Shown here: positions 6,582-33,894 of the stretch, piece after piece
Position numbering within the stretch: the first letter of the stretch is position 1
Layout: the number at the start of each line of letters is the position of its first letter
Origin: an uncultured Methanosarcinales archaeon
GTDB taxonomy: Archaea; Nanobdellota; Nanobdellia; Woesearchaeales; JASKKU01
Length of the DNA stretch: 64,000 nt
Assembly (NCBI GenBank): GCA_964445165.1
Contig: CAYUJZ010000001.1
Location: 1,591 to 65,590 of the forward strand
Reading direction: 5' to 3'
Made by a program: the position numbers and the translations under genes
The notes under the pieces: model-generated
Seen by the model: the letters and a program-made list of their open reading frames with translations, nothing else
Database searches by the model: none
What the model was told of the DNA's origin: nothing

Positions 6582-6618
6582 ACCACTGAATTCAGCACAT
6601 TTTTTATCTTGCTCCAAA

Positions 6619-7581: not shown

Positions 7582-7595
7582 CATCAATCTTTAAC

Positions 7596-14179: not shown

Positions 14180-15271
14180 ATGGAAAAAATCCCTATAGCA
14201 ATGCCGGACATTGACGAGAATGATATTAAGGCTGTTTCCAGTTGCCTTAGGTCTAGACAGATTGCTGCCGGAAAAATAACCGAAGAATTCGAGAAATTGT
14301 TTGCAAAAGAGATTGGCGTAAAGTGCTGCTTGGCTGTGAACAGCGGCACTACTGCCTTGAGAATAGCTCTCAGGTCGCTTAAACTGAGTAAAGGCTCAGA
14401 GGTGATTATTCCTGACATGTCTTTTGCCGCAACCGCCCATGCTGTATCCCTTGAGGGACTTATTCCTATTTTTTGTGACATCAAGCCTGATGGAAACATT
14501 GATGAAAGCTTAATTGAAAAAAGAATCACGCCCAAAACAAAAGCGGTTCTTGTTGTTCACCTGCACGGAATTTGCGCAAAGATTGATATGATATCAGAGA
14601 TTTGCAGGAAAAACGGGCTTTTTCTTGTTGAAGACTGCGCTCAGGCCTTTGGGTCAAATATTAATGAAAACATGGCTGGCTCTTTTGGAGATGTTTCTGC
14701 ATTCAGCTTATATGCTACAAAGAACATTGCAACAGGAGAGGGGGGAGTGGTTTGCTTTAATCATGCTGAAGATGAAGGCAAGGCTCTTAGATGGGTAAAC
14801 AACGGAAGAGAGAATGGAGAGGAGATTCTTTCCTTGGGAGACAATTTAAGGCTAAGCAATATTAATGCTTCACTTGGCATATCCCAGCTAAAGAAGCATA
14901 AAAAGATGCTAAATAAGAGGAAGGTAATTGCTGAGATATACAACAGTGAATTTTCTCGGTTAAACAGCATAATTCTGCCACCTTATTCTGGAAAATACGG
15001 GAATGCCTATCATCATTATAACCTTATCTTCAAGAGAGGAGTGGATTTTAATGAAGCGCTTGAATTTTTTGGCTCTGAAGGAATTTCGATTAAAAGGTAC
15101 TACCCTTATACCCTTTCGGAATGCGCTCCTTTTAGGAGAAAGCCTCTTAAAACTTCTGGCTTTATCTCAAAAAATTCATTTTGCATCCCAATCTTTTCCT
15201 CTATGAAAGAATCTGATGCAAAAAGAGTTGCTAAAGCTGTGAAAGATTTTGTGCGGAGGCGAGAAAAGTGA
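14180..15271 (+). CDS. DegT/DnrJ/EryC1/StrS-family PLP-dependent sugar aminotransferase
   Basis: AVNSGTTALRIAL and SLYATKNIATGEGG (PLP-Lys context) at family-typical spacing. Confidence 0.85.
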   Translation: MEKIPIAMPDIDENDIKAVSSCLRSRQIAAGKITEEFEKLFAKEIGVKCCLAVNSGTTALRIALRSLKLSKGSEVIIPDMSFAATAHAVSLEGLIPIFCDIKPDGNIDESLIEKRITPKTKAVLVVHLHGICAKIDMISEICRKNGLFLVEDCAQAFGSNINENMAGSFGDVSAFSLYATKNIATGEGGVVCFNHAEDEGKALRWVNNGRENGEEILSLGDNLRLSNINASLGISQLKKHKKMLNKRKVIAEIYNSEFSRLNSIILPPYSGKYGNAYHHYNLIFKRGVDFNEALEFFGSEGISIKRYYPYTLSECAPFRRKPLKTSGFISKNSFCIPIFSSMKESDAKRVAKAVKDFVRRREK

Positions 15272-16614
15272 ATATTCTCGTTCTGAACCTTCCGTTTGGC
15301 TCAAAGATTATAAGAAGGTACAGCTGCTCTTACTATGCGAGGGGATTTCTTTATCCGCCTGAAGAGTTGCTAAGAGTTGCAACAATTATAAAGGAATATT
15401 CTGAAAACCAGGTGTTTTTTTTAGACTCTATTGCTAAAAAAAGGAGTGTTTCAGATGTTTTGAGCTTTATTAAAAGTAGGAATATTCAACTGGTTATTAC
15501 TCTTCTGGGGATAGATTTTGTGCATAAAGACTATAAAACAATCAGAAGAATGAAAAAAGCAGTGCCCGGGCTTAAGATTGCCGGAATTGGGTATATGCCT
15601 TCTCGTTTCAAGGACAGTTTTCAGGAATTAGACTTTGTCCTTGACAACTTCTTTGAGCAAAGATTATTTGATGCGCTTAAAGAAAAAGACTTTCTCAAAG
15701 GGCTTAAGAAGAGCCAAAGCAAAAGATTAGAATTCAATCCAGATATCATTAGCTCAACTAACAGGAATTTTGTTAGGGCTTCTGATTATTCTGAGCTTTT
15801 CTGCAGGGGAAAAACCGCTTTTTTGTATTACGCCTTTGGCTGCTCATTCCACTGCAGTTACTGCATCCACTCATATGACTTAAAGCCTTCTGTAAAAAGA
15901 GACAAAGGAAAGGTGCTTTCAGAGATACTTGAGATTTACAAGGCGGGTTATAAGAATATAAGATTCCTCGATGATAACATTACGCAGGACGTTGGCTTTT
16001 TGGCGGATTTAAGAGATTTTGTAAGAAGGAAAAAAATAAAGCTAAATTTTTATGGTCTTTCTAGAATTGACTTGATTAACAGCAAAACGGTTGCCCTGCT
16101 TAAGGAAATTAATTTTAAAAGGCTTTACATTGGGCTGGAAACATTTAGCCCGGAAATGCAGAAGCTCTACAAAAAAAACATTGATGTGGATTTTGCCGGC
16201 TTAAGGAAAAAATTCTCTTTGTTGAGAAAGAACGGCATTGAAACTGGCGTATGGATTCTTTACAGCCCGATGCATGAAAACAAGAATGATATTGCGGATT
16301 ATGCAAAGAGTTTGCGAAAGTTGAAGGCTTCGCTAGTAAATATAAGCATAGTTACACCTTATATCGGAACAGAGCTTTTTGAAGATGAAAGAGAATCTAT
16401 AAGGTTTAGGCTTATGCCTTTCGTTTCTGAATTCACCCAGTCAAAAGGGGTGGTGAAGGTTGAACGGTGTTTTTGGATTTCTTACCTGGCAAGCCCCTGG
16501 AGTTTTTTAAGGTATTTTTGGCTTTCACTTAAACACCCTGTTGCTGCTGTAGAAATAGCCTTGGGGTTTATAAGCTTCGGCAGAAAAGATTCTGAAAGAA
16601 AAGATTTCATCTAG
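15268..16614 (+). CDS. class-B (B12-binding domain) radical SAM enzyme
   Basis: N-terminal Rossmann-like domain, then GCSFHCSYC (CxxxCxxC) at about residue 190; overlaps the aminotransferase stop. Confidence 0.8.
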   Translation: MNILVLNLPFGSKIIRRYSCSYYARGFLYPPEELLRVATIIKEYSENQVFFLDSIAKKRSVSDVLSFIKSRNIQLVITLLGIDFVHKDYKTIRRMKKAVPGLKIAGIGYMPSRFKDSFQELDFVLDNFFEQRLFDALKEKDFLKGLKKSQSKRLEFNPDIISSTNRNFVRASDYSELFCRGKTAFLYYAFGCSFHCSYCIHSYDLKPSVKRDKGKVLSEILEIYKAGYKNIRFLDDNITQDVGFLADLRDFVRRKKIKLNFYGLSRIDLINSKTVALLKEINFKRLYIGLETFSPEMQKLYKKNIDVDFAGLRKKFSLLRKNGIETGVWILYSPMHENKNDIADYAKSLRKLKASLVNISIVTPYIGTELFEDERESIRFRLMPFVSEFTQSKGVVKVERCFWISYLASPWSFLRYFWLSLKHPVAAVEIALGFISFGRKDSERKDFI

Positions 16615-16632
16615 CTTTTTTGCCCGCCAATC

Positions 16633-18408
16633 TTATTCTGGGAAAGGCACGGGGTTGTGGTTTTCTATAACATTCAAAACGAAAGCCTCGTTTCTGTAAA
16701 CTTCTGTTTTTTTGTCAAAAGCATCTATAATTTCCTCAAGATTTTCTCTCATTTCAGCAAAATGCCCGTATAACTCAGTTTCATTGCAGAAACTCAGGAA
16801 ATAAAAGCGCTCATAAGAATTTAACCTTTCCTTTAGGTATGATTGCTCTCCCAAATCATGAATCCTAAACAAAACGAAATCTCTCTCTGTCCTAAGAAAG
16901 ATTAGCTCTATATTTGTAATATGCATAAAAACTACTGGCAGATCTTCAGTCATCCTAAGCGCAACATCATCAAAAAAACCAATACTATCAAAATATCTTT
17001 GATTATGCTGGCTAAAACTAAATATTAAACTTAAGATAATGAACACTAAAACGACCATTAAAACTGAACTTGCCTTCCTGAGGCCTCTGTATTTGAATGC
17101 GGGAAAGGATAAAGCAATAGGAATAACAAGAAAATAAAAGAATACATGCAGAAACCTTCCATCAAAGTTAGAAGTTTCAAGGTAAGAGAGAATATTAAGT
17201 ATGCAAAATGAAAATAGTAAGAAAAAGGTTATTTCTCCTAGGGTTGTCTTCTCTTCCTTCCCTGATTTGCCAATTACCTGAAAAACAAGCCGAATCATGA
17301 ATAAAACAAAGAATGCGATAAGAGAATAAGTAACAAAAGGCTTAAAATAAAACAAATAATGCAATAATTCAGGTAACCAGTATGCAAAAAGCCTATCGAG
17401 ATAGCCTGAAAGGGAATAATGGCCTAATACCTGTGTTCGACTTAGGGAGTAAATAAGAATGGCAAGAAAAAAGATAACACCTGAGAGTGCATACAACCTT
17501 TTCTTTTTATGGCTAAAAAGCAAGAATGCCAAAGATGTGGATAAATATAAAGGGAAAAGCGCAAATGCACTAATAGAAACTTCTGTTTGGCCCATAACTC
17601 TTATTTCAGATGTGAGATAGAAAAAAAAGCCAAATAAAAGAAATACTGCCAGAGTTAAAAGAATAACTTTCCTAGTGGGCTTATTTTTCAGATTCAAGTC
17701 AATATTCCTTCGCGAGATGATGTATGCAATAATAACGGGGAGCAACAAGATAGTTTCTACCCGAGTAAGAACTAGAATAGATAGAATAAATGCAAGAAAG
17801 TGAAGGTTCTTCAGCTTAACATAATCAGTAATAAAGATTATAGAGAAAAATATCATTAGGTAAAGATTTTCAGAATAAAAATTAAAAACATAAAAAAGAA
17901 AAAGAGGCATCACAAAAAGAAGAAACGACGCAAATAGAGCTATGTAAGGGCCTTTTCTCCTTGAAACGAAAAGAAAAATAAAAAATGATGAAAGAAGATT
18001 CAGAAAAAAAACAAGGCCCCGCATTCCAAGGTCATAATGCTGCTGAGGAAATATTGTCCTGATAACGGATATAGCAATAGGATAAGTTAATTCATGCTCT
18101 CCTGAGAAGAGCCAGAAAGTGCAATACTCATCAAGTTCCGGAGTTCTAAAGAAGATCCTGTCAAGAATGCATTTTGCTTGGGACTCATAGGTTAATGACT
18201 CGGATGTCATTGACCTGTCGAAGAATGGTAACGAGAAGATAAAGGTCATCAAAGCTATCAGAATTAAAAGAAAGTACCGATTTTTTGAGATAAGTTTCAG
18301 AAATTCATTTTTGCTGTCTGCAAGTATTTTGAAAAAAGAAAAGATAGCGCCAGCAATGAATATAAAATAGCCCGCCAGTATTAAGTACAGTAAAGCCATT
18401 TTTTCCAC
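16633..18408 (-). CDS. polytopic membrane protein, GT-C-like glycosyltransferase candidate
   Basis: 591 aa, more than 12 TM helices, TPELDEY in an early loop. Confidence 0.45.
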   Translation of the reverse strand: MEKMALLYLILAGYFIFIAGAIFSFFKILADSKNEFLKLISKNRYFLLILIALMTFIFSLPFFDRSMTSESLTYESQAKCILDRIFFRTPELDEYCTFWLFSGEHELTYPIAISVIRTIFPQQHYDLGMRGLVFFLNLLSSFFIFLFVSRRKGPYIALFASFLLFVMPLFLFYVFNFYSENLYLMIFFSIIFITDYVKLKNLHFLAFILSILVLTRVETILLLPVIIAYIISRRNIDLNLKNKPTRKVILLTLAVFLLFGFFFYLTSEIRVMGQTEVSISAFALFPLYLSTSLAFLLFSHKKKRLYALSGVIFFLAILIYSLSRTQVLGHYSLSGYLDRLFAYWLPELLHYLFYFKPFVTYSLIAFFVLFMIRLVFQVIGKSGKEEKTTLGEITFFLLFSFCILNILSYLETSNFDGRFLHVFFYFLVIPIALSFPAFKYRGLRKASSVLMVVLVFIILSLIFSFSQHNQRYFDSIGFFDDVALRMTEDLPVVFMHITNIELIFLRTERDFVLFRIHDLGEQSYLKERLNSYERFYFLSFCNETELYGHFAEMRENLEEIIDAFDKKTEVYRNEAFVLNVIENHNPVPFPE

Positions 18409-18433
18409 TTAATAAAAAGATAACGCGCCTTTA

Positions 18434-19879
18434 TTAGTAATGAACAATATCAAATCCATAAACATGATAATAGGTTATAAGGTACTTAAAATCCATGCCT
18501 AATGCAAGCCCTCTTAATACATACCTAAAAAAGTTAATGAGATATTTAAGGTTTTGTTTTCTGAGAATTACTCCTATTCTTCTTGGGAGAGTCTGGCTGT
18601 ATGCCTTTGCCTGAAACATCTCAACATGCCGAGATGACAAGCCAGGGTAGTCTATCACTGCATCAAAGCTTATGTTGTTTGCTGTTTTAGATTTCCTTAG
18701 GTTAATCTTTCCGCCTTCCTTTATAACCAGTTCTTTGGATTCGTCAGTGAAAGGCTTGAAAACAAAAAACACGCTCCTGTCGCTTTTAATCTCTTTTGCC
18801 AGGCTTAATGTCTGGCGGAGTGTTGCCTTTGACTCTCCTGGGGCGCCAAGGATAAAGTATGCAGTTGTGCGGATTCCGTACTTTTTTGTGAGCCTGAACA
18901 CTTCTCTTACTTTTTGGGTTGAAAGCTGCTTGTTCATGATAAGGTTTCGGATTTTCTCGTTTCCTGACTCAACACCAAGCCTCAATATTTCGCACCCCGA
19001 ATCAGACAACAGCCTTATTTTCTCTTCATCAAGGTGATCAACTCTTGAGAACATTGAATATTTCTGCTTTTTTGTGTCTGCTGCTTTCTTATACTCTTTA
19101 CAAAACTCCTTCAGCCATTCTCTGTCCATTGTAGGGATCTGGTCAAAAAGCTGTATCAGCTTAAGGCCTTTATTCTGGTACTTATTCCACTGCCAGGCAA
19201 GCTCTTCTGCCAGCCTTTTTGGTGACATTGACCTGAAGTACCTGCCCGGGATTGCCTTCTTTATCCCGCAGGACTCGCAAAAAGTGCAATTGTATGTGCA
19301 GCCTCTTGTCCCAATCTGGTAAAGCATTCCGAGGAAATAGAAGTATTTGTCCAGGTCTTTCCATAGGCTCCAGTCCAAATAAGGCAGTGAATCAAGGTCT
19401 GAAAAGAAGTGACCAGGGTTTCTGGTTTCCTTGCCTTTTGCCTTAATCCAGACTCCGCTAATCCTGGCCAATTCATCGGGAGAGTTCAGGGAATCGAGGA
19501 TTTTGCAGATGGTGTCATCTGCATCACCTACTACAAGAACATCGCAGTAGCTGAGATTAAAGAGCTCCTCAGGATGCACTGATGCATGGTAGCCTCCGTA
19601 AAGGACTTTTGTTTTTGGCGAGATTCTTTTTACTTCTTTGCTTATTTCTTTTATAAACTGCAGGTAAAGCGAGTTAACTGAAAACCCTATTGCATCTGGC
19701 CTGTGCCTGGCAATATGCTCTCTCAAAAGCCTTCTCCATTGCTTTCTTCTGAAGGTAAAGTCAAGAATGGCTGCCTTGTGTGTGCCTTTTTTATTTACAA
19801 TTGTAGCAAGGGTAGTTATCGCTATATCTAGTGCGCTAAAATCACCGCCCAGAACCGGATTCACAAAAGTTATCTTCAT
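18434..19879 (-). CDS. class-B (B12-binding) radical SAM enzyme
   Basis: N-terminal B12-binding-like domain with YGGYHASVHPEE (GGxHxS/T), then GCTYNCTFC. Confidence 0.8.
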   Translation of the reverse strand: MKITFVNPVLGGDFSALDIAITTLATIVNKKGTHKAAILDFTFRRKQWRRLLREHIARHRPDAIGFSVNSLYLQFIKEISKEVKRISPKTKVLYGGYHASVHPEELFNLSYCDVLVVGDADDTICKILDSLNSPDELARISGVWIKAKGKETRNPGHFFSDLDSLPYLDWSLWKDLDKYFYFLGMLYQIGTRGCTYNCTFCESCGIKKAIPGRYFRSMSPKRLAEELAWQWNKYQNKGLKLIQLFDQIPTMDREWLKEFCKEYKKAADTKKQKYSMFSRVDHLDEEKIRLLSDSGCEILRLGVESGNEKIRNLIMNKQLSTQKVREVFRLTKKYGIRTTAYFILGAPGESKATLRQTLSLAKEIKSDRSVFFVFKPFTDESKELVIKEGGKINLRKSKTANNISFDAVIDYPGLSSRHVEMFQAKAYSQTLPRRIGVILRKQNLKYLINFFRYVLRGLALGMDFKYLITYYHVYGFDIVHY

Positions 19880-21243
19880 TCTAAAAGCCTTTTGAGCTTG
19901 TAAAAAAAGGTTTTTCTTTTTAAGGTTTGCCTTATGGATGTGGAAATCCTTTTTGGATGGAGATAGAAAGCCATAAAGGCATAGGTTTTTAGTAGCCTGA
20001 GAAGGGGTCGGGGAATGCCTGAAAGAGAGTCTTTTGAGCTTGTATAATAGCTTGAGAACGAACTATTCTTGCTTGCACTTCCTAAATATGTTCCTGGAAG
20101 CGCTGTGAGAACGCTGAAAGTTGCAAAATCCAGGCCTAAATTAGAGATTTTATTGATTTCTCTTACAGTTTCCCTTATTCCCTTGTTAGGAAAGCCAATC
20201 ATAAAAAAGCCAAGAGTTTTTATGCCAGCTTTGTTTAGGACCCGAATTGACTCTCTAACTTCTTTATGAGGAAGTACTTTTTTCAGCAGTTCGTTCCTAT
20301 TTTTTTCATCTAATGTTTCAATCCCCAGCCTTACTTCAACACATCCTGCCTTCTTCATAAGACTGGCTAATTCTGGTTTTACCAGGTCAGCCCTTGTATT
20401 GCATATCCAAGTGAATGAGATTCTTTGGGCTTTTTTAAGCTTAATAAGAGAATTGCAGAAATCAATTACATGTTCCTCATTCACAGTGAAGGAATCATCA
20501 TGAAGCATAAAGGAGTTTATATTGTGGTGTTTTTTCAGGAATTTCAGCTCTGAAAGTATAAAACTTATTTTTTTATGTTTTAATTTCTTTCCAAAAATGT
20601 TTTCCACTGTGGGCTGGCAGAATTTGCATTGGAAAGGGCATGAGCGTGAGGATGAGAAGCTCACTCCTCTTCGTTTTTTCAGGTAATCTAGGTACGGCCA
20701 GTGCCTAATGTAATCTTCAAGGTTTGGGATTATGCCCCAGTCTATCCTTGGGATTTCAAGGTTTGGAAAAAACTCTCTTTTTGTTTTGAGGATTTTCCTG
20801 TTTTTCCTAAAGCAAAGATTGGGAAGCTGCTCAAGCCTGCGATTCTGAAAAAGGGCTGAAATAGAGCCTGAATCTGCAAAGAGTTCAATTATGCTCTTTA
20901 ATGTTAACTCTCCCTCGCCCAAAACCGCAATGTCCGCGATGGTGAGGGATTTTTCTGGCTGTATTGTTGGGCCTGGGCCCCCTATTATTCTTAAAGCACT
21001 GATTTTTGAGAAAAAATGCCTGTTTTTGTTTAGATGGTATTCCATAGAAAAACTATTTGCAGAGAAAGCTACGATCTGGAACTTTTTAGAGAGAATCTCT
21101 TTGGAGAGTCTGTCAAAGTACCAAAAAGAAAAATCCTGCTCTTTCTTAAGGTAAGAGATTAGTTCAAGCAAGCCAGCGTTCACATGGCCTGTTTTTAAAC
21201 CCTGGTTCAGATCAACAAAGGCTATTCTAGGCTTTTGCCGCAT
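19876..21243 (-). CDS. class-B (B12-binding) radical SAM enzyme
   Basis: IIGGPGPT motif, then SCPFQCKFC; its stop overlaps the start of the upstream gene. Confidence 0.8.
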   Translation of the reverse strand: MRQKPRIAFVDLNQGLKTGHVNAGLLELISYLKKEQDFSFWYFDRLSKEILSKKFQIVAFSANSFSMEYHLNKNRHFFSKISALRIIGGPGPTIQPEKSLTIADIAVLGEGELTLKSIIELFADSGSISALFQNRRLEQLPNLCFRKNRKILKTKREFFPNLEIPRIDWGIIPNLEDYIRHWPYLDYLKKRRGVSFSSSRSCPFQCKFCQPTVENIFGKKLKHKKISFILSELKFLKKHHNINSFMLHDDSFTVNEEHVIDFCNSLIKLKKAQRISFTWICNTRADLVKPELASLMKKAGCVEVRLGIETLDEKNRNELLKKVLPHKEVRESIRVLNKAGIKTLGFFMIGFPNKGIRETVREINKISNLGLDFATFSVLTALPGTYLGSASKNSSFSSYYTSSKDSLSGIPRPLLRLLKTYAFMAFYLHPKRISTSIRQTLKRKTFFYKLKRLLE

Positions 21244-21534
21244 AAAACAGCAAGTATAAAGGGGTTTTTATTTATTTTGATTTTTCTGAGCTAAAAAAGA
21301 CATTCGGAATTAACCAAAGCAAATGCCTGAAACACAGCTAACATTATTAATCTAACAAAGGCTTGAGCTCGCCATCGCCATAAACTTCTTTATATGTGAT
21401 TGCTATTCCGGGACAGGAATCCTTGTAAATGCAGGGCTTGCATTTCTCGGTTTTTATGTGCATTTTGTCATCTTCTCCTGAGCCATTGATAAAGTAGGGG
21501 TTGTATTTCATCAGCCCAGGGAATATGCAGAAGG
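20829..21534. repeat. copy 1 of a ~706 bp segmental duplication (5' end of the B12-rSAM gene + intergenic spacer + 3' end of the short rSAM gene)
   Basis: Near-identical to 22433-23138 at a constant offset of 1604 bp. The antisense ORFs 20891-21154 and 22495-22758 encode identical peptides. Confidence 0.9.
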
Positions 21535-22228
21535 GAAAAGAGCCCGCACCTTCGGTGAGACCAAAAGGAACATCCTTCTTTGCAAAGAGCCTGAAAGCAC
21601 TTTCGATAAAGCCTGCATGAGAACTCAGCCTAAAAGAAACATGCTTGAATTTGCTGGCAGGTGAGTTTATCCTAGCCAAGGCAAAACAAAACTGGTTGAC
21701 GGAAAGTCCTGGAAAATTTTTTCTTACAAAAAAGGGAATCTTGTAAAAGTGAGCAAGGTTCTGCTTCATTATCACAATTAACATGGTTATAGGAACTTTA
21801 TGCTTCTCAAGGTTTTTCAGCGCGAGAAGCGCCTGCTGGTAGCAGTCTTTTTGGGCTATCATATTGTATGCTTCTTTCTGGTGAGAATTAAATGTAAGGA
21901 AAACGGACTGCAGGCCTAGCCCAACGAGTTTTCTGCAGTATTCCTCATCACTGAATTTAAGGCTGTTTGTCTCAACTGAAAACCTAATGCCTTTATCATG
22001 AGCAAACTCGCAAACTTTGATAAATTCTGGAAGCTGAGTTGGCTCGCCTCCGCCTAAAAAGAATAATTCTCTCAAACCGGGATTCTCTTCAATACCCTTT
22101 TTAATCTCCAGAATAATCTCTTCATAGGTTTTCACATGGCCATTAAACTCCTTTAGGTACTGGTTTCTCTCGCAGTAAATGCAATCTATCTCGCACGCCT
22201 GCTCAAAGTTTATGGATAATCTGCCCAT
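21347..22228 (-). CDS. short radical SAM enzyme, twitch-like C-terminus (family member 2)
   Basis: CEIDCIYC, GGGEPT, C-terminal CKPCIYKDSCPG. Confidence 0.8.
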   Translation of the reverse strand: MGRLSINFEQACEIDCIYCERNQYLKEFNGHVKTYEEIILEIKKGIEENPGLRELFFLGGGEPTQLPEFIKVCEFAHDKGIRFSVETNSLKFSDEEYCRKLVGLGLQSVFLTFNSHQKEAYNMIAQKDCYQQALLALKNLEKHKVPITMLIVIMKQNLAHFYKIPFFVRKNFPGLSVNQFCFALARINSPASKFKHVSFRLSSHAGFIESAFRLFAKKDVPFGLTEGAGSFPFCIFPGLMKYNPYFINGSGEDDKMHIKTEKCKPCIYKDSCPGIAITYKEVYGDGELKPLLD

Positions 22229-22340
22229 GAAATCACTATTGTTAGTCTTGCTTTATTATTTATAAAGCCTTTGGATTAAAAACAGTTTATTAATGGAAAG
22301 ATATAAAACATAAACCTTACTTCACAGAAAGATGCCAAAC

Positions 22341-22847
22341 CTATTGCTCACAAACTACTGCAATCGGTCGTGCCCTTACTGCTTTGCGAAGCAGAAGGTT
22401 GACCTTGAGAAGACAGAGGGGCTTGAGGGCGAGCTCAAGCCTTCGATTTTGAAAAAGGGCTGAAATAGAGCCTGAATCTGCAAAGAGTTCAATTATGCTC
22501 TTTAATGTTAACTCTCCCTCGCCCAAAACCGCAATGTCCGCGATGGTGAGGGATTTTTCTGGCTGTATTGTTGGGCCTGGGCCCCCTATTATTCTTAAAG
22601 CACTGATTTTTGAGAAAAAATGCCTGTTTTTGTTTAGATGGTATTCCATAGAAAAACTATTTGCAGAGAAAGCTACGATCTGGAACTTTTTAGAGAGAAT
22701 CTCTTTGGAGAGTCTGTCAAAGTACCAAAAAGAAAAATCCTGCTCTTTCTTAAGGTAAGAGATTAGTTCAAGCAAGCCAGCGTTCACATGGCCTGTTTTT
22801 AAACCCTGGTTCAGATCAACAAAGGCTATTCTAGGCTTTTGCCGCAT
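22341..22847 (-). pseudogene. truncated duplicate of the N-terminal 138 aa of the B12-rSAM gene at 19876-21243
   Basis: The N-terminal 138 aa (codons inside duplication copy 2) are identical to the 19876-21243 product, then it diverges into 30 unrelated residues and stops. Confidence 0.75.
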
Positions 22848-23138
22848 AAAACAGCAAGTATAAAGGGGTTTTTATTTATTTTGATTTTTCTGAGCTAAAA
22901 AAGACATTCGGAATTAACCAAAGCAAATGCCTGAAACACAGCTAACATTATTAATCTAACAAAGGCTTGAGCTCGCCATCGCCATAAACTTCTTTATATG
23001 TGATTGCTATTCCGGGACAGGAATCCTTGTAAATGCAGGGCTTGCATTTCTCGGTTTTTATGTGCATTTTGTCATCTTCTCCTGAGCCATTGATAAAGTA
23101 AGGGTTGTATTTCATCAGCCTAGGGAATATGCAGAAAA
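22433..23138. repeat. copy 2 of the ~706 bp segmental duplication; also carries a 3' fragment (about 60 codons) of the short rSAM gene
   Basis: A handful of mismatches relative to 20829-21534, e.g. gtagggg/gtaaggg. Confidence 0.9.
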
Positions 23139-23289
23139 GGCTATGCCCGCGAGAATTATCCCGTTGTTAACTAGGCTAAAAGAACTGACACTGCCTCTTT
23201 AATCATCCAGAAAAAAAGCAATCCTCTTTTTAACTTTAGGGAGCATTTCAATCATTAAGTTGTTGAGGATTCTTAAACATTTCCCTTTT

Positions 23290-24855
23290 CTAAATGCCTA
23301 TTATCTTAAATCGGGTGTTAAAAAAGCCTCTTTTTTGGGCTTTTTCAAGCACTTTCTGGTTCTCTTTATACCCTTCCTGGAACAAAGCCAGCTCAACCAC
23401 AAAAGGGTCCAAACAGCCAAACATCTGTCTTGCCGAGGGGTCATAAACAAAACTTAGCCTGAACTTTGGCGAAACAAACGAAAGCAGGTCCAGAAAAAGC
23501 TCATCCAGGTCAATCCCTGGCTTATTGGCAAACTCATCAAAAACCTCCTTAAAGGGGTTAGCCTTAACAAGATGGTCTAAGGTATAAAGAAATCTGGGTG
23601 AGCCCTGAATAATTGAAAGGTTTATTGCCACAAAGGAGCTTTTTAAGCCAGAATTAAAGAACATGTCCTTAACAGCCCTATTAAATGGCCTGTAAAAGTG
23701 CTCTTTCTTATTCGAAAAATCAAAAACAAGCTTAGGATAATCGCGCGTAATGCATGCCCGGGTATCCTTTGAGAATTCGCTCTCATCCGCAAGAAAGAAT
23801 ATCTTTTTATTGTTAAAAAACCTCTTATTTCCCCCGAATTGATTAACCAGCTTAAGCACAGAGGAATAGGTATCTTTGGGGTTAACATTAACAAGAAAGC
23901 CGTCATCCACAAAATTGCTCTTTTCTTTGATTCTCACTGAAGCAGCAAGAGGGTCGCTAAATACCGGGTTTAGCTCTTTTACATCATAAACATTCAGGTA
24001 GCTTTGCTTTACCCCGGGGCATAATGAGGTAAAGAAGCAATTTTCACAAATCTCGGGGTTTTTGACATACTCAAACTCACCGTAAGACTGCTCTCTATCA
24101 AGAAACTTCGTCTCATAATACTCTACTCCAGACGCCCTGAGAGCCTCAGAAGAGTAATACTCGAAATCTTTAAGGTAGCAAAGAGGCACCCTTTCTATCC
24201 TAAGGGTTGTCTCATGTCTCTCAGCTTCCTTTGCGGCATTATACAAGTAAGGCTCTGCAAGGGAATACCTGGGAACAACATTCTTTCTTATGGACTTCAT
24301 AATTTCCGGGTCATTTGAAGCAGGATCAACAAAATTCATTGTCCAGGTGTTTATTTTTGAGTGCTTTGAAGCATCTTTTATAATTTGTGGCAGAACCATA
24401 TAATTCTTTTCAATAATGGTTGTGTTCATGTTAACCTCAAAGCCGTGCTTGTGTGCAAAAGCCATGTTTTGGAATACTGTGGGAAGCTCAATCTCATCAG
24501 CACCGTTTATCTCCATCTCGGCTTCAGCATCGTAATGATGTATAGAAAAGACAAACTTATCAACATACCCTTTAAGCTTAAGAATAAGCTCTTCAGTAAG
24601 CTTTGTGCCATTAGTTATCATTCTTACCTGGGCTTTTGGGGCCTTTGCTCTGAGCATCTGAGCAAGCTCAACAATTTCAGGGTGCATAGCTGGCTCCCCA
24701 CCAGTAAGCACGAACATGTCTGCACCCTTTGAAATAAACTCATCAACCTTCTTCTCAAAAAGCTCTTTTGAGATATAATCTTCTGTCTTTTCTACTGAGC
24801 AGAAAATGCACTTGTGATTACAGTCAAGGGTAACAACAATATAGCCATCCATCAC
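23290..24855 (-). CDS. radical SAM enzyme of the short-family type with a ~200 aa C-terminal extension (family member 3)
   Basis: CNHKCIFC at residues 12-19, TGGEPA, CENCFFTSLCPG near residue 300. Confidence 0.8.
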   Translation of the reverse strand: MMDGYIVVTLDCNHKCIFCSVEKTEDYISKELFEKKVDEFISKGADMFVLTGGEPAMHPEIVELAQMLRAKAPKAQVRMITNGTKLTEELILKLKGYVDKFVFSIHHYDAEAEMEINGADEIELPTVFQNMAFAHKHGFEVNMNTTIIEKNYMVLPQIIKDASKHSKINTWTMNFVDPASNDPEIMKSIRKNVVPRYSLAEPYLYNAAKEAERHETTLRIERVPLCYLKDFEYYSSEALRASGVEYYETKFLDREQSYGEFEYVKNPEICENCFFTSLCPGVKQSYLNVYDVKELNPVFSDPLAASVRIKEKSNFVDDGFLVNVNPKDTYSSVLKLVNQFGGNKRFFNNKKIFFLADESEFSKDTRACITRDYPKLVFDFSNKKEHFYRPFNRAVKDMFFNSGLKSSFVAINLSIIQGSPRFLYTLDHLVKANPFKEVFDEFANKPGIDLDELFLDLLSFVSPKFRLSFVYDPSARQMFGCLDPFVVELALFQEGYKENQKVLEKAQKRGFFNTRFKIIGI

Positions 24856-25715
24856 TCCTCGCCTCCTTCCTTAAGTGGGCTGAGTGCATGGCCCGGCTCA
24901 ATCCTGAACTCCTTAAAATATCTTTCATAAAAACCCGCACATTTTTCATTAAAACAGCACGTGCTGCAGGATTCTGCTTTTATCCTGGGCACAATGCCAA
25001 CAGGATTTTTAACTAACGCCTTGCCAAGCTGGCCTTCAGCCAGAAAGCAGAAGGGAATGTTTCTTAACTCCAGAGCCATTCCTGTCTTGCTGGCACTCTC
25101 AATTATTTCCGTTAAAGCATCCTGCAGTATTAAATGATGCGGCATAAGCATAAAAAAGTTATCTTTTCCCAAGCCTGCAGGCTCAAAAAGCATGATTTTC
25201 CATTTAGATGCCTTAAGCCTCTTAAGCAAAAAAGGCATGCTTTTCAGGTTGGAATCATTGCATTTCGTCAGCACAGTGCTCACTTTGGTATCAAAGCCGG
25301 CAGAGGCAAGGTCTAAAAGCCCCTTCACAGACTGAATCCATGAATCCTCTGTACGAGTAAGGAAGTCGTGGATGTCCCTTCTCGAGGCATGCAGGGAAAC
25401 ATTGAACACAAGCTTTTTCTGAAAAGGCTTAAACTCCTTCAAGAAGGCAGGCACTGCAAGCATCCTACCGTTTGTATTAACCTCTATCATTTCAAAGAGA
25501 GAAAAAGCCTTCTTCACCAAAATCGGCAAGCCTTTGTACAGAGTTGGCTCCCTTGCAGAAATAACTAGCCTTTGCCCCTTTGCCAGGCCCTCAGCATCCA
25601 AGGCCTCCTGAATTTGCTTTATCTCGATTGACGGGTTTTTGCAAAACCAGCAATTATTGTTGCAGGCCTCAGAAACCTGCAATTTCAAGCATTCGGAGTG
25701 CATGGCTAAAGGCAA
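24852..25715 (-). CDS. short radical SAM enzyme, twitch-like C-terminus (family member 4)
   Basis: CNNNCWFC, LHASRRDIHDFLTR, C-terminal CSTCCFNEKC; overlaps the upstream gene. Confidence 0.8.
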   Translation of the reverse strand: MPLAMHSECLKLQVSEACNNNCWFCKNPSIEIKQIQEALDAEGLAKGQRLVISAREPTLYKGLPILVKKAFSLFEMIEVNTNGRMLAVPAFLKEFKPFQKKLVFNVSLHASRRDIHDFLTRTEDSWIQSVKGLLDLASAGFDTKVSTVLTKCNDSNLKSMPFLLKRLKASKWKIMLFEPAGLGKDNFFMLMPHHLILQDALTEIIESASKTGMALELRNIPFCFLAEGQLGKALVKNPVGIVPRIKAESCSTCCFNEKCAGFYERYFKEFRIEPGHALSPLKEGGEE

Positions 25716-25782
25716 AAAACAGGATTTATAAGCTTTTTGTTAGGTTTACCGGGGTTTCTCAAAGAAGGCTGCTTCTTTCCGA

Positions 25783-27372
25783 TTAGCCAGGAATTCTAAG
25801 GATTATGAACTCCGGGCTTTCATTATAAACAAGCTCAAAGGAGATGTTAAGGCTAGCCAGCTCATCTCTAACATCAAAATCCGCCCTCTCTGCAAACACA
25901 ATCAGGGTTTCCCCAGCTTCAGGCCTGTAATCTTCAAAAGAAATAGTATGGTCAAACCGTTTTATACATCTTTCATCAGAATAGAAAGCCATTAGATTAT
26001 CAGAAAGCATATCGGAAAACGGGATATTATAAAGAGTGAATCTTGCTGAACCAATATCAGCCACGCTCTCTAGGTAAGAGCAGTTTGCAGCCTTGCTAAT
26101 AAAATCCAGGCCATGGCTTTTTTGCGTACTTACATGCCCATAAATCGAAGGGTATGCATAAAAGCCGAAAAACAAGCTTGCTCCTGCCAAAAATACCAAA
26201 AGTGAAATGAATGCCATCTTTATCAAGGATTTTCTTTTGATAAGCTCAATCGAGCCTGATTCAAAAAAGCATGCGAGCAGAACAAAAAAGAAGAACAAAA
26301 GATAGGAAAAAAAATATTTCTGATTTACAAAAGTGGATGTTTCAAAAGATGAAAACAGAATAAGGAAAAAGAAGGGAAGCAGTGCCCACCATTTCTTAAA
26401 ATAAAACACATAAAAAGCTGTGAAGACAGAAAAACCAAGAAAGATAAAAAAAGACGGAAAATACGACAGCAAGCTCTCACTGACATTCATAAAGAAATAA
26501 TAAAGAGAGAAGCCGCGATTCACATTAAAGAACAGAACGTGATAGACAAATGGGGCAGCCAAAATAAAGAAAGCAGACAGGGCAACTGCAGAAAAAGCCT
26601 TATTCTTTTTAAGAAATTTATACGAGAAAACAAAAGGAATAAGAAAAAAAATCGCTCCGTGTTCAAACTTGATATATGCCATAGCAAGAAGAATTAGAAG
26701 AAAAAGCGAGACAAGAAAATAGCGTTTAGGCTTAGGCATAAAAAGCTTTCTATTTCCTTCGAGGCTGCAAAAAACAGGCACCAGCGCCACGATCAGGAAA
26801 AGAGAGAAAAATTCCGCAACTGAATATAGCGAACCATACAATGTTATTGGATTAAAGAAAATAAAGCACAATAATGCAAAAGAAGCAAGCCTGCTCAATT
26901 TTGTAGTCTTTAAGAGAAAGTAAAGCAAAATCCCGGCAGAAACAAAAACCAGGGGATTTAACAGGCTGATTTTTCTGGCGAAGCCAGAAAAAAGAGAAAA
27001 AAGGTACAGCACAAAAGAGTAACCCATAGGGTGAGATGGGTGAACAAAAGGGAGCAGAATCATTTTTTCAGAGAAGGGAATCTCAGGGTCCCGCATTATA
27101 TCAACATGATTCAGATATGTCCAAACTTGGGCGTCATGCCCAAAAAACGGCTCGTGCCTGAAAGAGAAAGCAGAATACAAAAAAACAAAGGCAATAATGA
27201 AAGCTACCAAGAAAAATGCGTCTTTCCAGCCAAGCTTAATTCCACTAAGGTGCTTTAAAAAAAAATAAAGCAAAAAACAGAAAAGCAAAGAGAATATAAT
27301 TATTACAAAAGGATACTCGAGCCTGCCCAATGCTGATAAGCCCGGTTCAAGAAAAGACAGGAACATAGGCAC
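25783..27372 (-). CDS. polytopic membrane protein, GT-C-like glycosyltransferase candidate
   Basis: 529 aa, more than 12 TM helices, FFGHDAQ in the first loop. Confidence 0.45.
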   Translation of the reverse strand: MPMFLSFLEPGLSALGRLEYPFVIIIFSLLFCFLLYFFLKHLSGIKLGWKDAFFLVAFIIAFVFLYSAFSFRHEPFFGHDAQVWTYLNHVDIMRDPEIPFSEKMILLPFVHPSHPMGYSFVLYLFSLFSGFARKISLLNPLVFVSAGILLYFLLKTTKLSRLASFALLCFIFFNPITLYGSLYSVAEFFSLFLIVALVPVFCSLEGNRKLFMPKPKRYFLVSLFLLILLAMAYIKFEHGAIFFLIPFVFSYKFLKKNKAFSAVALSAFFILAAPFVYHVLFFNVNRGFSLYYFFMNVSESLLSYFPSFFIFLGFSVFTAFYVFYFKKWWALLPFFFLILFSSFETSTFVNQKYFFSYLLFFFFVLLACFFESGSIELIKRKSLIKMAFISLLVFLAGASLFFGFYAYPSIYGHVSTQKSHGLDFISKAANCSYLESVADIGSARFTLYNIPFSDMLSDNLMAFYSDERCIKRFDHTISFEDYRPEAGETLIVFAERADFDVRDELASLNISFELVYNESPEFIILRIPG

Positions 27373-27413
27373 AAGTAAACCGGTTTTATTATAAATTTTT
27401 CTTTTTAATAAAA

Positions 27414-28409
27414 TTACTTAGATACGCCAGGATTTACCTTTGAGAAAGCTATGTTTTTCTTAACCCTGTTATAAAGGTCTTCTGAAAGTGGGTTAAAGTG
27501 ATAATCTTTATTATTCAGCAAATGCTCTCTCAGAATACCACCGCAAATACCATCTTTTTTCAGAAAGCACTTTTCACATTGCCAAAGATATTCCTGATTC
27601 CTGTAGTCTTTTACAATATCCTTTATTCTTTTGTTAATCTCATCATCTGAAAGGTTGTAAAGGTAGAAAACATTAAAAAATCTTATCGAATTAAACCCAA
27701 GAAGATCTTCTTCAGAGAAAATGCACAGGGGAACATATTCGATTCTTATATCTTCAGCATCTAACCTGCTAATCTTAAGGACGGCCCTTCTGATATCAGA
27801 AAAAGAAACCAAAAAATCCTGAAACCTTATGTTCTTATTATCGTTATGAAGATAAGGCATTGTGAGCCGCCAGGGATATATCCCAAACTCTTTCCTGCAG
27901 AAAACAAACATATCATAAAAGTTCTCGATGTTCTGCTTAAGAAAAACAGAAGTCAGCCTAATTTCAATGCCCGAATCCAGCTCAAGAAGATTCTTAATTC
28001 CCTTGACAACCTGATTAAAGGCGCCCGGATTTCCAACTGCAGCATCGTGGTATTTTGCTTCTGAGCCATAAATAGGTATAAAAACCCTCGAGATGCCGGT
28101 CTTAGCAAACCTGCTGGCAAAACTCTTGTCAGCAAGCCTGTTTCCCGGGTCAAGAAGACTTATATCATCAAAACTTTTAGATAACCAGGAAAGAAATTCT
28201 ATGATTTTAGAGTATTTCAAAGGCTCAGAGCCAGAAACATCAATCCTTTTAAATCCGTTTTTTCTGAAGTAAAGCGCATCTTTGAGAAGCTTCTTCTCTT
28301 CTTCAAGGCCTAGGTCGTCGTTATGTAAACTCTTGTCCGGCTTACAAAACACGCAGTTATTAGAGCAACGCGGATTGATGAGAATGCTCCCAAACTTGTC
28401 TTCTTTCAT
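27414..28409 (-). CDS. short radical SAM enzyme, twitch-like C-terminus (family member 5)
   Basis: CSNNCVFC, SGSEPL, C-terminal CEKCFLKKDGIC. Confidence 0.8.
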   Translation of the reverse strand: MKEDKFGSILINPRCSNNCVFCKPDKSLHNDDLGLEEEKKLLKDALYFRKNGFKRIDVSGSEPLKYSKIIEFLSWLSKSFDDISLLDPGNRLADKSFASRFAKTGISRVFIPIYGSEAKYHDAAVGNPGAFNQVVKGIKNLLELDSGIEIRLTSVFLKQNIENFYDMFVFCRKEFGIYPWRLTMPYLHNDNKNIRFQDFLVSFSDIRRAVLKISRLDAEDIRIEYVPLCIFSEEDLLGFNSIRFFNVFYLYNLSDDEINKRIKDIVKDYRNQEYLWQCEKCFLKKDGICGGILREHLLNNKDYHFNPLSEDLYNRVKKNIAFSKVNPGVSK

Positions 28410-28497
28410 AAAAAAAGAAAAAAGTCTTTTCGTTTAAAAATATTTGCCTTGCCCTTAAATAGGCAATATTTTTAAATCCGGCAACCTCACTATTTAT

Positions 28498-29439
28498 ATG
28501 CAAAAAGAGTACTGCATCCTGAAAATAAACAACAAGTGCAACTACATATGCAACTTTTGTGCCGACTCTCTCAAGATTAAGGCTGAGGAGGAAATAGAAT
28601 TAAATGAAATTCTTTCCATAATTAAAAAAGAAAAAGATGAGGGTGCAATCAAGCTTCTTATAACAGGAGGGGAGCCAACCATATCCCCGCACCTTTTACC
28701 TGCTATTAAGAAAGGAAAAGAGCTTGGCTTTGAGAGCATTAGCCTAACAACAAATGGAAGAAAGCTTTCAGAAGATGATTTTTTCGCAGATGTTAACAGC
28801 TATATTGATGTTTACCTTATATCATTTTTCTCGGCTGACCCTTACACTTTTGACACTATCGCCGGAGTAAAAGGAGCTTTCTCAGATGTGAGTAAGGCTC
28901 TTCTTAAGATTTCAAGAGAGAAAAAAAAGAAACTTTGCATTAATTGTGTCATCTCAAGAATGAATTATAGAGAACTCAACAACATTGTTGTATATCTTGC
29001 ATCACTTGAAGCCTCTTTAATACAGTTCAGCTTTGCTAATATTGTTGGGTTTTTTAGAGATAATTTCGATAATCTTTTTGTTGATTACAATGAAATCTTG
29101 CCCTATGCTGTGAAAGCAATCCGGCTCTCTGAATACCTTAATTATAAAGGGCTTAGTTTTGAGAATTTTCCAATATGCCTTTTTTCAGGACACCTGCCTC
29201 TAAAAAAGGTTATGCCTAGGATATCTGACTTACACCATCCTGCAGGAAACAAAAAATACTATTCAAGCGGCAAGATGCATACACAAAAATGCAGGGAATG
29301 CTTCTTTCTAAACAGGTGCGAGGGCATTTACGAAGAGTACTATAGAAGAAGAGGAGACGGTGTGCTGACATCAATAAAAAAAGAAGATTTTGAAGACGAA
29401 AAAAAAGCAAATAAAAAAGAAAAAGTTAAAAATCATTAA
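28498..29439 (+). CDS. short radical SAM enzyme, twitch-like C-terminus (family member 6)
   Basis: CNYICNFC, TGGEPT, C-terminal CRECFFLNRC. Confidence 0.8.
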   Translation: MQKEYCILKINNKCNYICNFCADSLKIKAEEEIELNEILSIIKKEKDEGAIKLLITGGEPTISPHLLPAIKKGKELGFESISLTTNGRKLSEDDFFADVNSYIDVYLISFFSADPYTFDTIAGVKGAFSDVSKALLKISREKKKKLCINCVISRMNYRELNNIVVYLASLEASLIQFSFANIVGFFRDNFDNLFVDYNEILPYAVKAIRLSEYLNYKGLSFENFPICLFSGHLPLKKVMPRISDLHHPAGNKKYYSSGKMHTQKCRECFFLNRCEGIYEEYYRRRGDGVLTSIKKEDFEDEKKANKKEKVKNH

Positions 29440-30361: not shown

Positions 30362-30362
30362 T

Positions 30363-32639: not shown

Positions 32640-32659
32640 TTAAATCACATTACCTGCTT

Positions 32660-33316: not shown

Positions 33317-33326
33317 GATTATCTCC

Positions 33327-33875: not shown

Positions 33876-33894
33876 TTTGGTTTGTTTAAAGCAG

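Follow-up and report, generated by a model that had tools for sequence, protein, structure and literature searches.

A 706-bp piece of a radical SAM (rSAM) gene cluster is present twice in the window, as we call the whole 64-kb stretch of DNA analysed here, and the duplication is an ordinary, population-wide rearrangement scar. The host of the cluster is a Woesearchaeota-like (DPANN) archaeon. In the reading that we consider likely, this is a real partial duplication carried by every sampled strain, in which the second copy (copy B) replaced most of a third rSAM gene (Z); the event would be old, and the identity of the core of the two copies would reflect repeat collapse.

Structure of the repeat

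The repeat was direct and ungapped, with an offset of 1604 bp between copy A and copy B (Table 1). Self-BLASTN aligned the copies over 704 bp at 99.43% identity, and no second repeat was found by this search in the 64-kb window. A preliminary description of this DNA had reported a near-identical repeat of ~706 bp at the same offset with few mismatches; six were counted (copy-A coordinates 20839, 20845, 21497, 21517 and 21533/21534), each at most 38 bp from a repeat end. The 651-bp core (20846-21496) was 100% identical between the copies. Over the full 706 bp they differed by 0.85%, over the 704 bp aligned by BLAST by 0.57%, and within the core by 0%. If mismatches were uniformly spread, the chance of all six falling in the outer 55 of the 706 bp would be ~2e-7.

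The full period was not present twice (2 x 1604 bp): 706 bp were repeated, and the sequences beyond 23138 and before 20829 were unrelated at this offset, ruling out a simple head-to-tail tandem duplication. Past the repeat ends the only residual homology was a GCGGGC hexamer common to both copies, ~10 nt beyond the rSAM-side boundary; it showed a one-base offset between the copies and is compatible with chance. All the ORFs in and around the repeat were rSAM genes or fragments, and no inverted repeats were found in 19000-25000. An origin from a mobile element (IS/transposon) was rejected, given the lack of inverted repeats and of a transposase.

Table 1. Features of the duplicated region (positions in the window)
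Feature	Position	Strand	Remarks
Intact 455-aa B12-binding rSAM gene	19876..21243	-	first 138 codons in copy A
Repeat copy A (R)	20829..21534	-	part of two intact genes
Intact 293-aa rSAM gene	21347..22228	-	last 62 codons and stop in copy A
Unique segment X, 898 bp	21535..22432	.	R + X = 1604-bp period
Stump of gene Z, third rSAM gene	22332..22432	+	from ATG, 33 full codons; MPNLLLTNYCNRSCPYCFAKQKVDLEKTEGLEG
168-aa chimeric ORF	22341..22847	-	B12-rSAM residues 1-138 and a 30-aa foreign tail
Repeat copy B (R'), secondary	22433..23138	-	orphan rSAM 3' end, duplicated spacer/promoter, B12-rSAM codons 1-138
Orphan 3' fragment of the 293-aa rSAM gene	22951..23138	-	ORF 22951-23115, 54 aa
U1, 151-bp unique spacer	23139..23289	.	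between the 521-aa rSAM gene and copy B
A/B-specific core sites (copy-A coordinates)	21377, 21350, 21337, 21325, 21302, 21264/63, 21251, 21229, 21194, 21184, 21171, 21121		
Order on the minus strand		-	521-aa gene, U1, R(B), X, R(A), remainder of the B12-rSAM gene

Gene content of the two copies

Besides its coding parts, copy A comprises a 103-bp spacer that contains a TTTATA box as well as an oligo-T run. This agrees with the composition described earlier (138 B12-rSAM codons, spacer and the last ~60 rSAM codons) once the latter are counted as 62 codons plus the stop. The 455-aa protein matched Pfam Radical_SAM over the cutoff (1.3e-16, 61.7 bits) and Pfam B12-binding below it (1.2e-4, 22.3 bits against a cutoff of 32.1), and its best NCBIfam matches were all B12-rSAM families, each far under its cutoff. 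An orthologue with conserved synteny (P0002, 455 aa, 73% identical, 100% coverage) was found in a Woesearchaeota MAG. The 293-aa protein matched Pfam Radical_SAM at 8.7e-22, and its best NCBIfam matches were HxsC4 and HxsC, far under the cutoffs; with 59.5 bits against a TIGR03977 cutoff of 267.9 it did not qualify as a member of the HxsC equivalog, being related to the HxsC family yet outside it, loosely HxsC/HxsC4-like. Its full-length homologues were in L010 (294 aa, 45% identical, residues 1-289) and L011 (40% identity). An NCBI contig 76,268 bp long is listed as carrying both products, of 455 and 293 aa. Since both its genes are full length against their homologues, with which they are colinear from end to end, copy A is the original copy.

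The preliminary description had also stated that copy B yields a 168-aa chimera and an orphan rSAM 3' end, and the ORFs are as it described. The 30-residue tail of the chimera corresponds to the Z stump read in antisense. This ORF has no radical SAM domain, its only matches being sub-threshold ones to Pfam B12-binding and Radical_SAM_N2; it was undisrupted in P0121, P0122 and P0124, three protein variants encoded on other contigs, and its B-specific changes were 3 synonymous vs 2 non-synonymous. As for the orphan 3' fragment, the upstream part of the gene is absent, in-frame stop codons lie upstream, and the 521-aa gene ends just 151 bp away (23139-23289). Its 54-aa product is named 'aminopeptidase-like protein' in one source, a name without support here.

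The third fragment, the Z stump, carries a CX3CX2C cluster motif and matched Pfam Radical_SAM positions 3-24 (E=0.0013, 19.4 bits), below the cutoff for so short a piece. Gene Z breaks off within codon 34, precisely at the junction with copy B, its frame continuing to a stop at 22463; this truncation was overlooked in the preliminary description. No homologue sharing enough words with the 43-aa Z-stump ORF was found in a 5.8-billion-protein database. The stump forms one end of segment X, which also holds codons 1-231 of the 293-aa gene (minus strand) and a 103-bp divergent intergenic region. Taken together, the three gene fragments are probably non-functional.

An ancestral layout with an intact Z (a gene starting MPNLLLTNYCNRSCPYCFAKQKV) was not found in JGI metagenome contigs, GTDB genomes or the 5.8-billion-protein database. 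Neither the duplication nor a Z gene was present in L010 and L011, distant relatives recovered by the 293-aa scan of JGI metagenome contigs and GTDB. In L002-L006, the closest relative at species level (73% aa identity), a 208-aa gene on the opposite strand, with no precomputed Pfam match, lies where the window has the 293-aa rSAM gene, which makes this relative uninformative on the pre-duplication state. The spacer U1, whose sequence is identical in L008 and L009, may contain what is left of the 3' end of Z.

The origin that we infer starts with illegitimate recombination or a replication template switch, which would have copied the 706-bp piece between codon 232 of the 293-aa gene and codon 138 of the B12-rSAM gene, spacer included. 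This copy would have landed 898 bp upstream, replacing the divergent rSAM gene Z beyond its first 33 full codons. Equally possible is a two-step route, with a 1604-bp tandem duplication followed by a deletion that took away the remainder of Z along with most of the first rSAM copy. The outcome would be two intact genes and three dead pieces, namely the Z stump, the orphan rSAM 3' end and the 168-aa B12-binding-only ORF behind a duplicated promoter.

Junctions and copy number in other assemblies

Other assemblies of near-identical strains contained all four junction types, spread over nine shorter contigs. The U1|R junction (23138/23139) was found in L008 and L009 (JGI 3300033163 and 3300037528), R|X (22432/22433) in L001, L007, L012, L013, L014 and L015, X|R in L001, L007, L012, L014 and L015, and R|B12-rest in L001 and L014. 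The compared samples have consecutive accession numbers and may stem from one or two studies, being independent as assemblies, perhaps not as sites. Both copies were on a single contig only in the window and in one ~17-kb (16,996-bp) JGI contig, the latter judged from its product listing; it is the longest contig listed for variants of the 54-aa, 168-aa and 293-aa products. The comparison with related genomes called for in the preliminary description recovered the junctions in near-identical strains, and a false duplication is unlikely as these junctions are present elsewhere and the A and B haplotypes track the flanks. The possibility of an assembly artefact, also raised there, is unlikely to hold for the existence of the copies, given the recurring junctions, and probably holds for their identity, given that flank-anchored A and B copies differ.

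Two contigs from assemblies of different pipelines had the structure X-R-X. In one of them (L012, period+127 in length) the two ends overlapped exactly over 127 bp, which makes it a closed graph cycle of one period, and the other (L007) was exactly the period minus 140 long (k-1 for k141). L007 was considered as a full tandem duplication intermediate, a candidate dropped because both contigs are, in view of these lengths, better read as graph-loop traversals.

Such contigs bear on whether the window holds the correct number of copies. A single R (U1-R-B12 rest), with the second copy and X mis-threaded from a 1.6-kb circle or tandem or from another strain, would account for the closed one-period cycle of L012 and for the X-R-X of L007 at the period minus 140, and contigs alone cannot separate U1-R-X-R-T from U1-R-T plus a circle. 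We consider such a mis-assembly extremely unlikely, since every junction type recurs in other assemblies. Segment X holds the promoter and codons 1-231 of the rSAM gene that ends in R(A), a gene destroyed without X; a 1.6-kb circle would have no replication function; the 76-kb contig of the window threads both copies, and the products of the ~17-kb JGI contig suggest the same layout; the A- and B-type haplotypes track the flanks, as for two integrated copies; and cycle contigs are the expected output of a loop in the assembly graph. Direct repeats of 706 bp are good recombination substrates, and the X-R-X contigs of two assemblies from different pipelines (L007 and L012) could also mark a copy-number-variable array, in which unequal recombination gives strains with at least three R (U1-R-X-R-X-R-T) or with one. 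This is improbable in our judgement, as the X-R-X lengths depend on k (period+127 and period-140), a usual sign of graph-loop traversal and not of real sequence. We likewise give little credence to the combined proposal that the 168-aa B12-binding-only ORF is an expressed, new stand-alone cobalamin-binding protein and that the repeats are active, exchanging sequence and looping out or expanding the 1.6-kb R-X unit. The facts cited for expression are the intact state of 3/3 variants, the ORF's own promoter copy and the synonymous and non-synonymous counts given above; those cited for activity are the cycle contigs L007 and L012 and a ~17-fold excess of variation within R.

Divergence and age of the copies

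In the flank-anchored contigs, copies A and B differed by 2.25-2.79% over the longer overlaps; within a single sample, L014 and L008 differed at 15/338 bp. Differences from the window were concentrated inside R (28/2506 positions, vs 3/4539 outside; Fisher p=3e-10), the unique flanks being ~0.07% different. One haplotype was common to the A-anchored L001, L014 and L015, over the span that each covers, and to L012, the loop contig that enters R from X; another was common to the B-anchored L008, L009 and L013. The two haplotypes differed at 13 core sites (Table 1) and at four sites at the rSAM-side repeat edge, and the four edge differences were present in every other contig. Alleles specific to A or B sorted cleanly in 7/8 anchored contigs. 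In L007 an A-type allele (21350 G) lay 86-121 bp from B-type alleles (21264-21229), a mixture that hints at real exchange between the copies. Positions 20845 and 20839 varied both among B copies and among A copies.

The high identity of the copies had been taken as the sign of a recent duplication or recombination event, if not of an assembly artefact. A recent duplication is not supported by this comparison: because the junctions are common to all the sampled strains and A and B differ by 2.3-2.8% against ~0.07% in the flanks, the duplication predates the strain diversity. The event therefore does not seem to be recent, with the copies ~2.5% diverged across the wider population as judged from the contigs compared. 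A very recent duplication, with copies truly 99.2-99.4% identical that had no time to diverge, would fit the 651-bp perfect core and the agreement of the window haplotype with the outgroup at most polarisable sites, like an unmutated founder. It is nevertheless very unlikely. The same junctions and the four edge differences occur in every other contig, as expected of one event older than the sampled strains, in which A and B differ by the percentages just given while the flanks hardly do; moreover, a clock with zero core changes in the window copies vs 5 and 8 elsewhere has a probability of ~e^-13, and the placement of the six mismatches at the edges alone is not that of uniform mutation (p ~2e-7).

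Origin of the perfect core

As the duplication is old elsewhere and the core of the window is 0% divergent, the core was probably made identical by collapse or else by conversion. Repeat collapse in assembly is the most likely cause: graph-based metagenome assembly would merge the two similar copies to give a single consensus edge, which is then traversed twice. The anchored contigs differed at 13 core sites where the window is identical, which is what a collapsed repeat predicts. In the ~17-kb JGI contig the B-copy products carried the A haplotype (LLE, C41, K17), and the contig kept the B-specific N101, ~113 bp from the junction. HiFi source reads would argue against collapse and make the core identity of the window real.

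The window core was a fine mosaic of A- and B-type haplotypes with at least four switches, one within 12 bp (21337/21325). A switch that close excludes a pure k-mer path choice between those two haplotypes and points to a third real haplotype in the source sample or to a pile-up polishing step. At most of the sites polarisable with L002, the outgroup, the window agreed with it, and the core of the window could be an unmutated, founder-like sequence.

Real gene conversion in the strain of the window, homogenising the copies of an old duplication with just the outermost 10-38 bp escaping, is a less likely alternative to collapse, and on balance an unlikely one. Differences confined to the edges are what conversion tracts dependent on flanking homology classically leave behind, L007 joins A-type and B-type alleles within 86-121 bp, and 20845 and 20839 vary within the B copies and within the A copies. 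However, a single tract would leave a pure A or B core, and the mosaic shared by both copies, with its four or more switches, needs several alternating events; the other long contig also has A=B in the core, with a different haplotype; and in short anchored contigs of the same JGI project series, whose Ga03348xx sample names are consecutive, A and B are different. Identity in the long contigs and difference in the short anchored ones fit an effect of assembly.

Significance and comparison with known systems

The duplication is a small, ordinary example of gene-cluster reshuffling in a reduced archaeal genome, in which a single event would have inactivated one rSAM paralogue and given rise to two gene fragments. 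It also carries a caution, since near-identity of repeats within a metagenome-assembled contig is not evidence of recency: flank-anchored contigs of sister assemblies showed ~2.5% divergence, vs 0.85% (706 bp) and 0% (core) in the window. The 168-aa and 54-aa ORFs are to be annotated as pseudogene fragments, not as genes.

The 455-aa protein resembles class B (B12-binding) rSAM enzymes, with a putative N-terminal B12-binding-like domain and a radical SAM core; in copy B the duplication parts the B12 domain from the catalytic core. The 293-aa protein resembles SPASM/HxsC-like rSAM enzymes in its N-terminal CX3CX2C radical SAM core and Cys-rich C-terminus. Both differ from the named rSAM families in that neither reached an NCBIfam equivalog cutoff.

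The rearrangement itself is like partial tandem or segmental duplications that arise by illegitimate recombination or template switching (microhomology-mediated duplication-deletion of the FoSTeS/MMBIR type) in its direct copies, short spacing and intragenic breakpoints without mobile-element features, as well as in its truncated and chimeric ORFs, the loss on the insertion side (Z) and the point differences near the junctions. It is unlike a simple head-to-tail duplication in that only 706 of 1604 bp are repeated, and the ancestral Z sequence is lost. Concerted evolution by gene conversion shares with our case the homogenised interior, the diverged edges and one possible recombinant haplotype (L007), but conversion would have had to strike several times, in alternation, to give both copies the same multi-switch mosaic.

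Another close parallel for the core is repeat collapse in short-read metagenome assemblies. In metaSPAdes, bulges are aggressively collapsed into a consensus backbone and repeats are then resolved by paths (PMC5411777), and as in collapse of this type the long contig has an identical core, with differences surviving just near the unique flanks. Short flank-anchored contigs with copy-specific variants, and cycle contigs with k-sized overlaps, are likewise features of collapsed repeats. The window departs from plain collapse in that its core haplotype is not simply either of the two common haplotypes.

Duplicated segment and its junctions in other assemblies

Self-BLASTN of the whole window returned the direct repeat (R) where the preliminary description had placed it, with 704 bp at 99.43% identity, as the single repeat in the 64 kb; the alignment of the copies is ungapped and its offset is 1604 bp. 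The genes concerned are all on the minus strand, and the layout in that direction is U1-R-X-R-T, where U1 and X are unique segments and T is the remainder of the B12-type radical SAM (rSAM) gene. The 455-aa protein matched a 455-aa homologue (P0002, 73% identical, 100% of the query), and residues 1-289 of the 293-aa protein matched a 294-aa homologue in contig L010 (45% identical); since both of its genes are full length against these homologues, copy A is the original.

Features of the duplicated region and contigs from other assemblies that contain its junctions
Feature	Position	Strand	Remarks
521-aa rSAM gene	24855 to 23290	minus	first in minus-strand reading order
U1, unique spacer, 151 bp	23289-23139		second in minus-strand order
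Copy B	23138-22433		third in minus-strand order
X, unique segment, 898 bp	22432-21535		fourth in minus-strand order
Copy A	21534-20829		fifth in minus-strand order; then remainder of 455-aa gene
293-aa radical SAM protein gene	21347-22228	minus	Pfam Radical_SAM 8.7e-22; intact, shares copy A
455-aa protein gene	19876-21243	minus	radical SAM core and sub-threshold B12-binding domain; intact, shares copy A
Orphan rSAM tail, 54 aa	22951-23115	minus	ORF call; duplicated 3' end of 293-aa rSAM gene
U1/R junction	23138/23139		L008 (JGI 3300033163), L009 (JGI 3300037528)
R/X junction	22432/22433		L001, L007, L013, L015 (ENA MEGAHIT ERZ27252282, -292, -280, -303, respectively); L012, L014 (JGI 3300033167, 3300033163)
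X/R junction			L001, L007, L012, L014, L015
R/B12-rest junction			L001, L014

Nine shorter contigs from other assemblies covered the region, with overall identities to the window of 98.8%-99.7%; their sample accession numbers are consecutive, and the samples may stem from one or two studies. In the cluster listing, a 16,996-bp JGI contig was the longest for the variants of the 54-aa, 168-aa and 293-aa products, and the window's own products were located on an NCBI contig of 76,268 bp. Because repeat collapse cannot invent novel adjacencies, a mis-assembly of a single copy is very unlikely; the assembly artefact initially contemplated does not account for the existence of the copies, whose junctions recur elsewhere, and applies, if at all, to their identity. 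From the contigs alone, U1-R-X-R-T is formally indistinguishable from U1-R-T accompanied by an independent R-X circle; in the latter arrangement the chromosomal 293-aa gene would be without its first 231 codons.

The path X-R-X, absent from the window, was found in two contigs from different pipelines. L012 (1732 bp) is a closed cycle of one 1605-bp period with an exact 127-bp terminal overlap (k=127), and the length of L007 (1464 bp) is exactly one period minus 140 bp (k-1 for k141). Both are most likely traversals of an assembly-graph loop, which gives such contigs, and were set aside as evidence for circles or extra copies. Copy-number variation of the R-X unit is a minor possibility: unequal recombination between the 706-bp direct repeats would yield exactly X-R-X products, and contigs like these would also be expected if the unit were expanded in tandem or excised as a 1.6-kb circle.

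Gene fragments in copy B

Copy B contains, as previously described, an orphan rSAM 3' fragment (the last 62 codons and stop, with nothing upstream) and a chimeric 168-aa ORF (22341-22847) composed of the first 138 B12-rSAM codons followed by 30 foreign codons. It also holds a second copy of the 103-bp spacer, in which an oligo-T run and, 17-22 nt upstream of the ATG, a TTTATA box suggest a likely archaeal terminator and leaderless promoter. In JGI data the 54-aa tail appears as a called gene; one source names it "aminopeptidase-like protein", a name unsupported for a duplicated gene end. The 168-aa ORF was intact in all three recovered protein variants, and its B-specific changes (three synonymous, two non-synonymous; p about 0.1) are not numerous enough for a claim of selection.

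Another gene, Z, is the source of the 30 foreign codons, which are read from its antisense strand. A plus-strand ATG at 22332 starts MPNLLLTNYCNRSCPYCFAKQKVDLEKTEGLEG, which has a CX3CX2C motif and aligns with Pfam Radical_SAM profile positions 3-24 (E=0.0013, 19.4 bits). The frame is broken in codon 34, exactly at the copy-B junction, and a stop follows eight codons inside the repeat, indicating that copy B occupies the former body of a divergently transcribed rSAM gene. The earlier reading of truncated gene copies was therefore correct as to structure and incomplete in overlooking Z. Searches found neither a homologue of the Z stump nor relatives carrying an intact Z. We regard the stump, the orphan tail and the 168-aa ORF all as pseudogene fragments.

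Divergence between the copies

Within the window the copies differ only at 20839, 20845, 21497, 21517 and 21533/21534 (copy-A coordinates), no more than 16 bp from one repeat end and 38 bp from the other, while the central 651 bp (20846-21496) are identical. That all six fall within the outer 55 of 706 bp (p ~2e-7 under uniform mutation) indicates that a process beyond simple decay shaped the pattern. Those at 20839 and 20845, at the low-coordinate, B12-side end, are both synonymous in the B12-rSAM frame and polymorphic among strains (A/A or G/C in B copies, G/C or G/A in A copies), representing population variants rather than junction marks.

The other contigs differed from the window at 28 of 2506 bp inside R versus 3 of 4539 bp outside (Fisher p=3e-10); L014 and L015 added one further outside difference, giving a flank difference of ~0.07%. 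Variable sites in R sorted by copy. The A haplotype (21377 T, 21350 G, 21337 T, +G at 21302, 21121 T) was common to L001, L014 and L015, which enter R from X, over the span that each covers, and was likewise present in the loop contig L012. The B haplotype (21325 T, deletion at 21264, 21263 T, 21251 T, 21229 C, 21194 G, 21184 C, 21171 C) was common to the U1-anchored L008 and L009 and to L013, anchored through its exit into X. The four rSAM-side edge differences (21534, 21533, 21517, 21497) matched the flank type in all contigs. Between anchored A and B copies, divergence was 2.25-2.79% over the longer overlaps, and L014 and L008, from the same sample, differed at 15 of 338 bp. Two A copies from different pipelines showed 0 differences in 707. 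The copy-sorted alleles and an A/B divergence far above that of the flanks indicate that the duplication is much older than the diversity of the sampled strains, so that the recent event first proposed is not supported. The closest other lineage, that of P0002 (L002-L006, annotated Candidatus Woesearchaeota), keeps the 455-481-590 gene order and has neither the upstream 293-aa gene nor the repeat, indicating an event specific to the window's species-level lineage.

Identity of the central segment in the window

At the five A-specific sites both window copies have the B-type allele, and at the eight B-specific sites both have the A-type allele. The perfect core is most economically explained by an assembly effect, in which a metagenome graph assembler would fuse similar paths to give a single consensus edge and later traverse that edge twice; only variants near a unique flank would survive, and the window pattern fits. 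metaSPAdes is described as collapsing bulges aggressively, using a "consensus backbone" and resolving repeats from paths (PMC5411777). The 16,996-bp JGI contig behaves like the window, its B-copy products having A-type residues (LLE end, C41, K17) and retaining the B-specific N101 ~113 bp from the junction; short anchored contigs from that JGI project series, whose sample names run consecutively (Ga03348xx), are of B type.

Pure collapse is countered by four or more switches of type along the window core, one of them within 12 bp; this requires either pile-up polishing or that the source sample holds a third real haplotype. In L007, an A-type allele (21350 G) is joined to B-type alleles 86-121 bp away, hinting at real exchange between the copies, and the window equals the outgroup at most polarisable sites, which also counts against pure collapse. 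Taken together, these observations keep real gene conversion a live, if rather improbable, explanation of the identical core, and the assembly effect is preferred.

The radical SAM cluster

Window 15268-29439 is a dense cluster of eight intact rSAM genes, three B12-type (448, 481 and 455 aa) and five short HxsC-like or SPASM-like (293, 521, 287, 331 and 313 aa), none of which reached an NCBIfam equivalog cutoff. In the 521-aa protein, the radical SAM domain is confined to the first ~150 residues, and the remaining ~330 had no match in Pfam or NCBIfam. Large polytopic membrane proteins of 591 aa (weak PMT_2 match) and 529 aa (no match) are interleaved; upstream are a DegT-family aminotransferase (14180-15271), two further large membrane proteins (573 and 500 aa) and a DUF362+4Fe-4S protein (9227-10897). 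The cluster looks like a putative surface glycan or lipid modification island.

Island gene content is fluid. In L002, a 73%-identical Woesearchaeota relative, genes for a DAO-type oxidoreductase and a GT2 glycosyltransferase (5556-7672) lie between those for the 590-aa membrane protein and the 448-aa rSAM protein; they are missing from the window, whose corresponding neighbours are directly adjacent (16614-16633). The position upstream of the 455-aa gene, occupied by the 293-aa rSAM gene in the window, holds a gene for a 208-aa Lys-rich membrane-anchored protein in the relative. The ORFs at 29462-34290, judged by eye from translations, resemble an archaeal ribosomal-protein operon (L15, L30, S5, L18, L19e, L32e, L6, S8); in the putative S5 ORF (30363-31571, 402 aa), the N-terminus is extended by ~170 aa of Lys/Glu/Ala-rich low-complexity sequence, and GC is 44-47% there versus 34-42% in the rSAM island.

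Origin and consequences of the arrangement

A single head-to-tail duplication was ruled out as the source of U1-R-X-R-T, just 706 of the 1604 bp being repeated. Two routes fit the layout, from which we infer the mechanism. One would be a single complex template switch that jumps forward out of the 3' side of Z, lands at codon 232 of the 293-aa gene, copies as far as B12 codon 138 and then jumps back into Z codon 34. The other would be a 1604-bp tandem duplication followed by a deletion of ~1.7 kb (assuming a typical Z of ~300 aa), which took out the remainder of Z together with codons 1-231 of the upstream rSAM copy. Mobile-element features were not present. The cluster has lost the rSAM paralogue Z and gained the orphan rSAM tail, as well as a B12-binding-domain-only ORF downstream of the duplicated putative promoter. 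Recombination between A and B would delete X, inactivating the 293-aa gene, and the arrangement is thus a built-in instability. As a type of feature, it is an ordinary rearrangement scar of a known kind.
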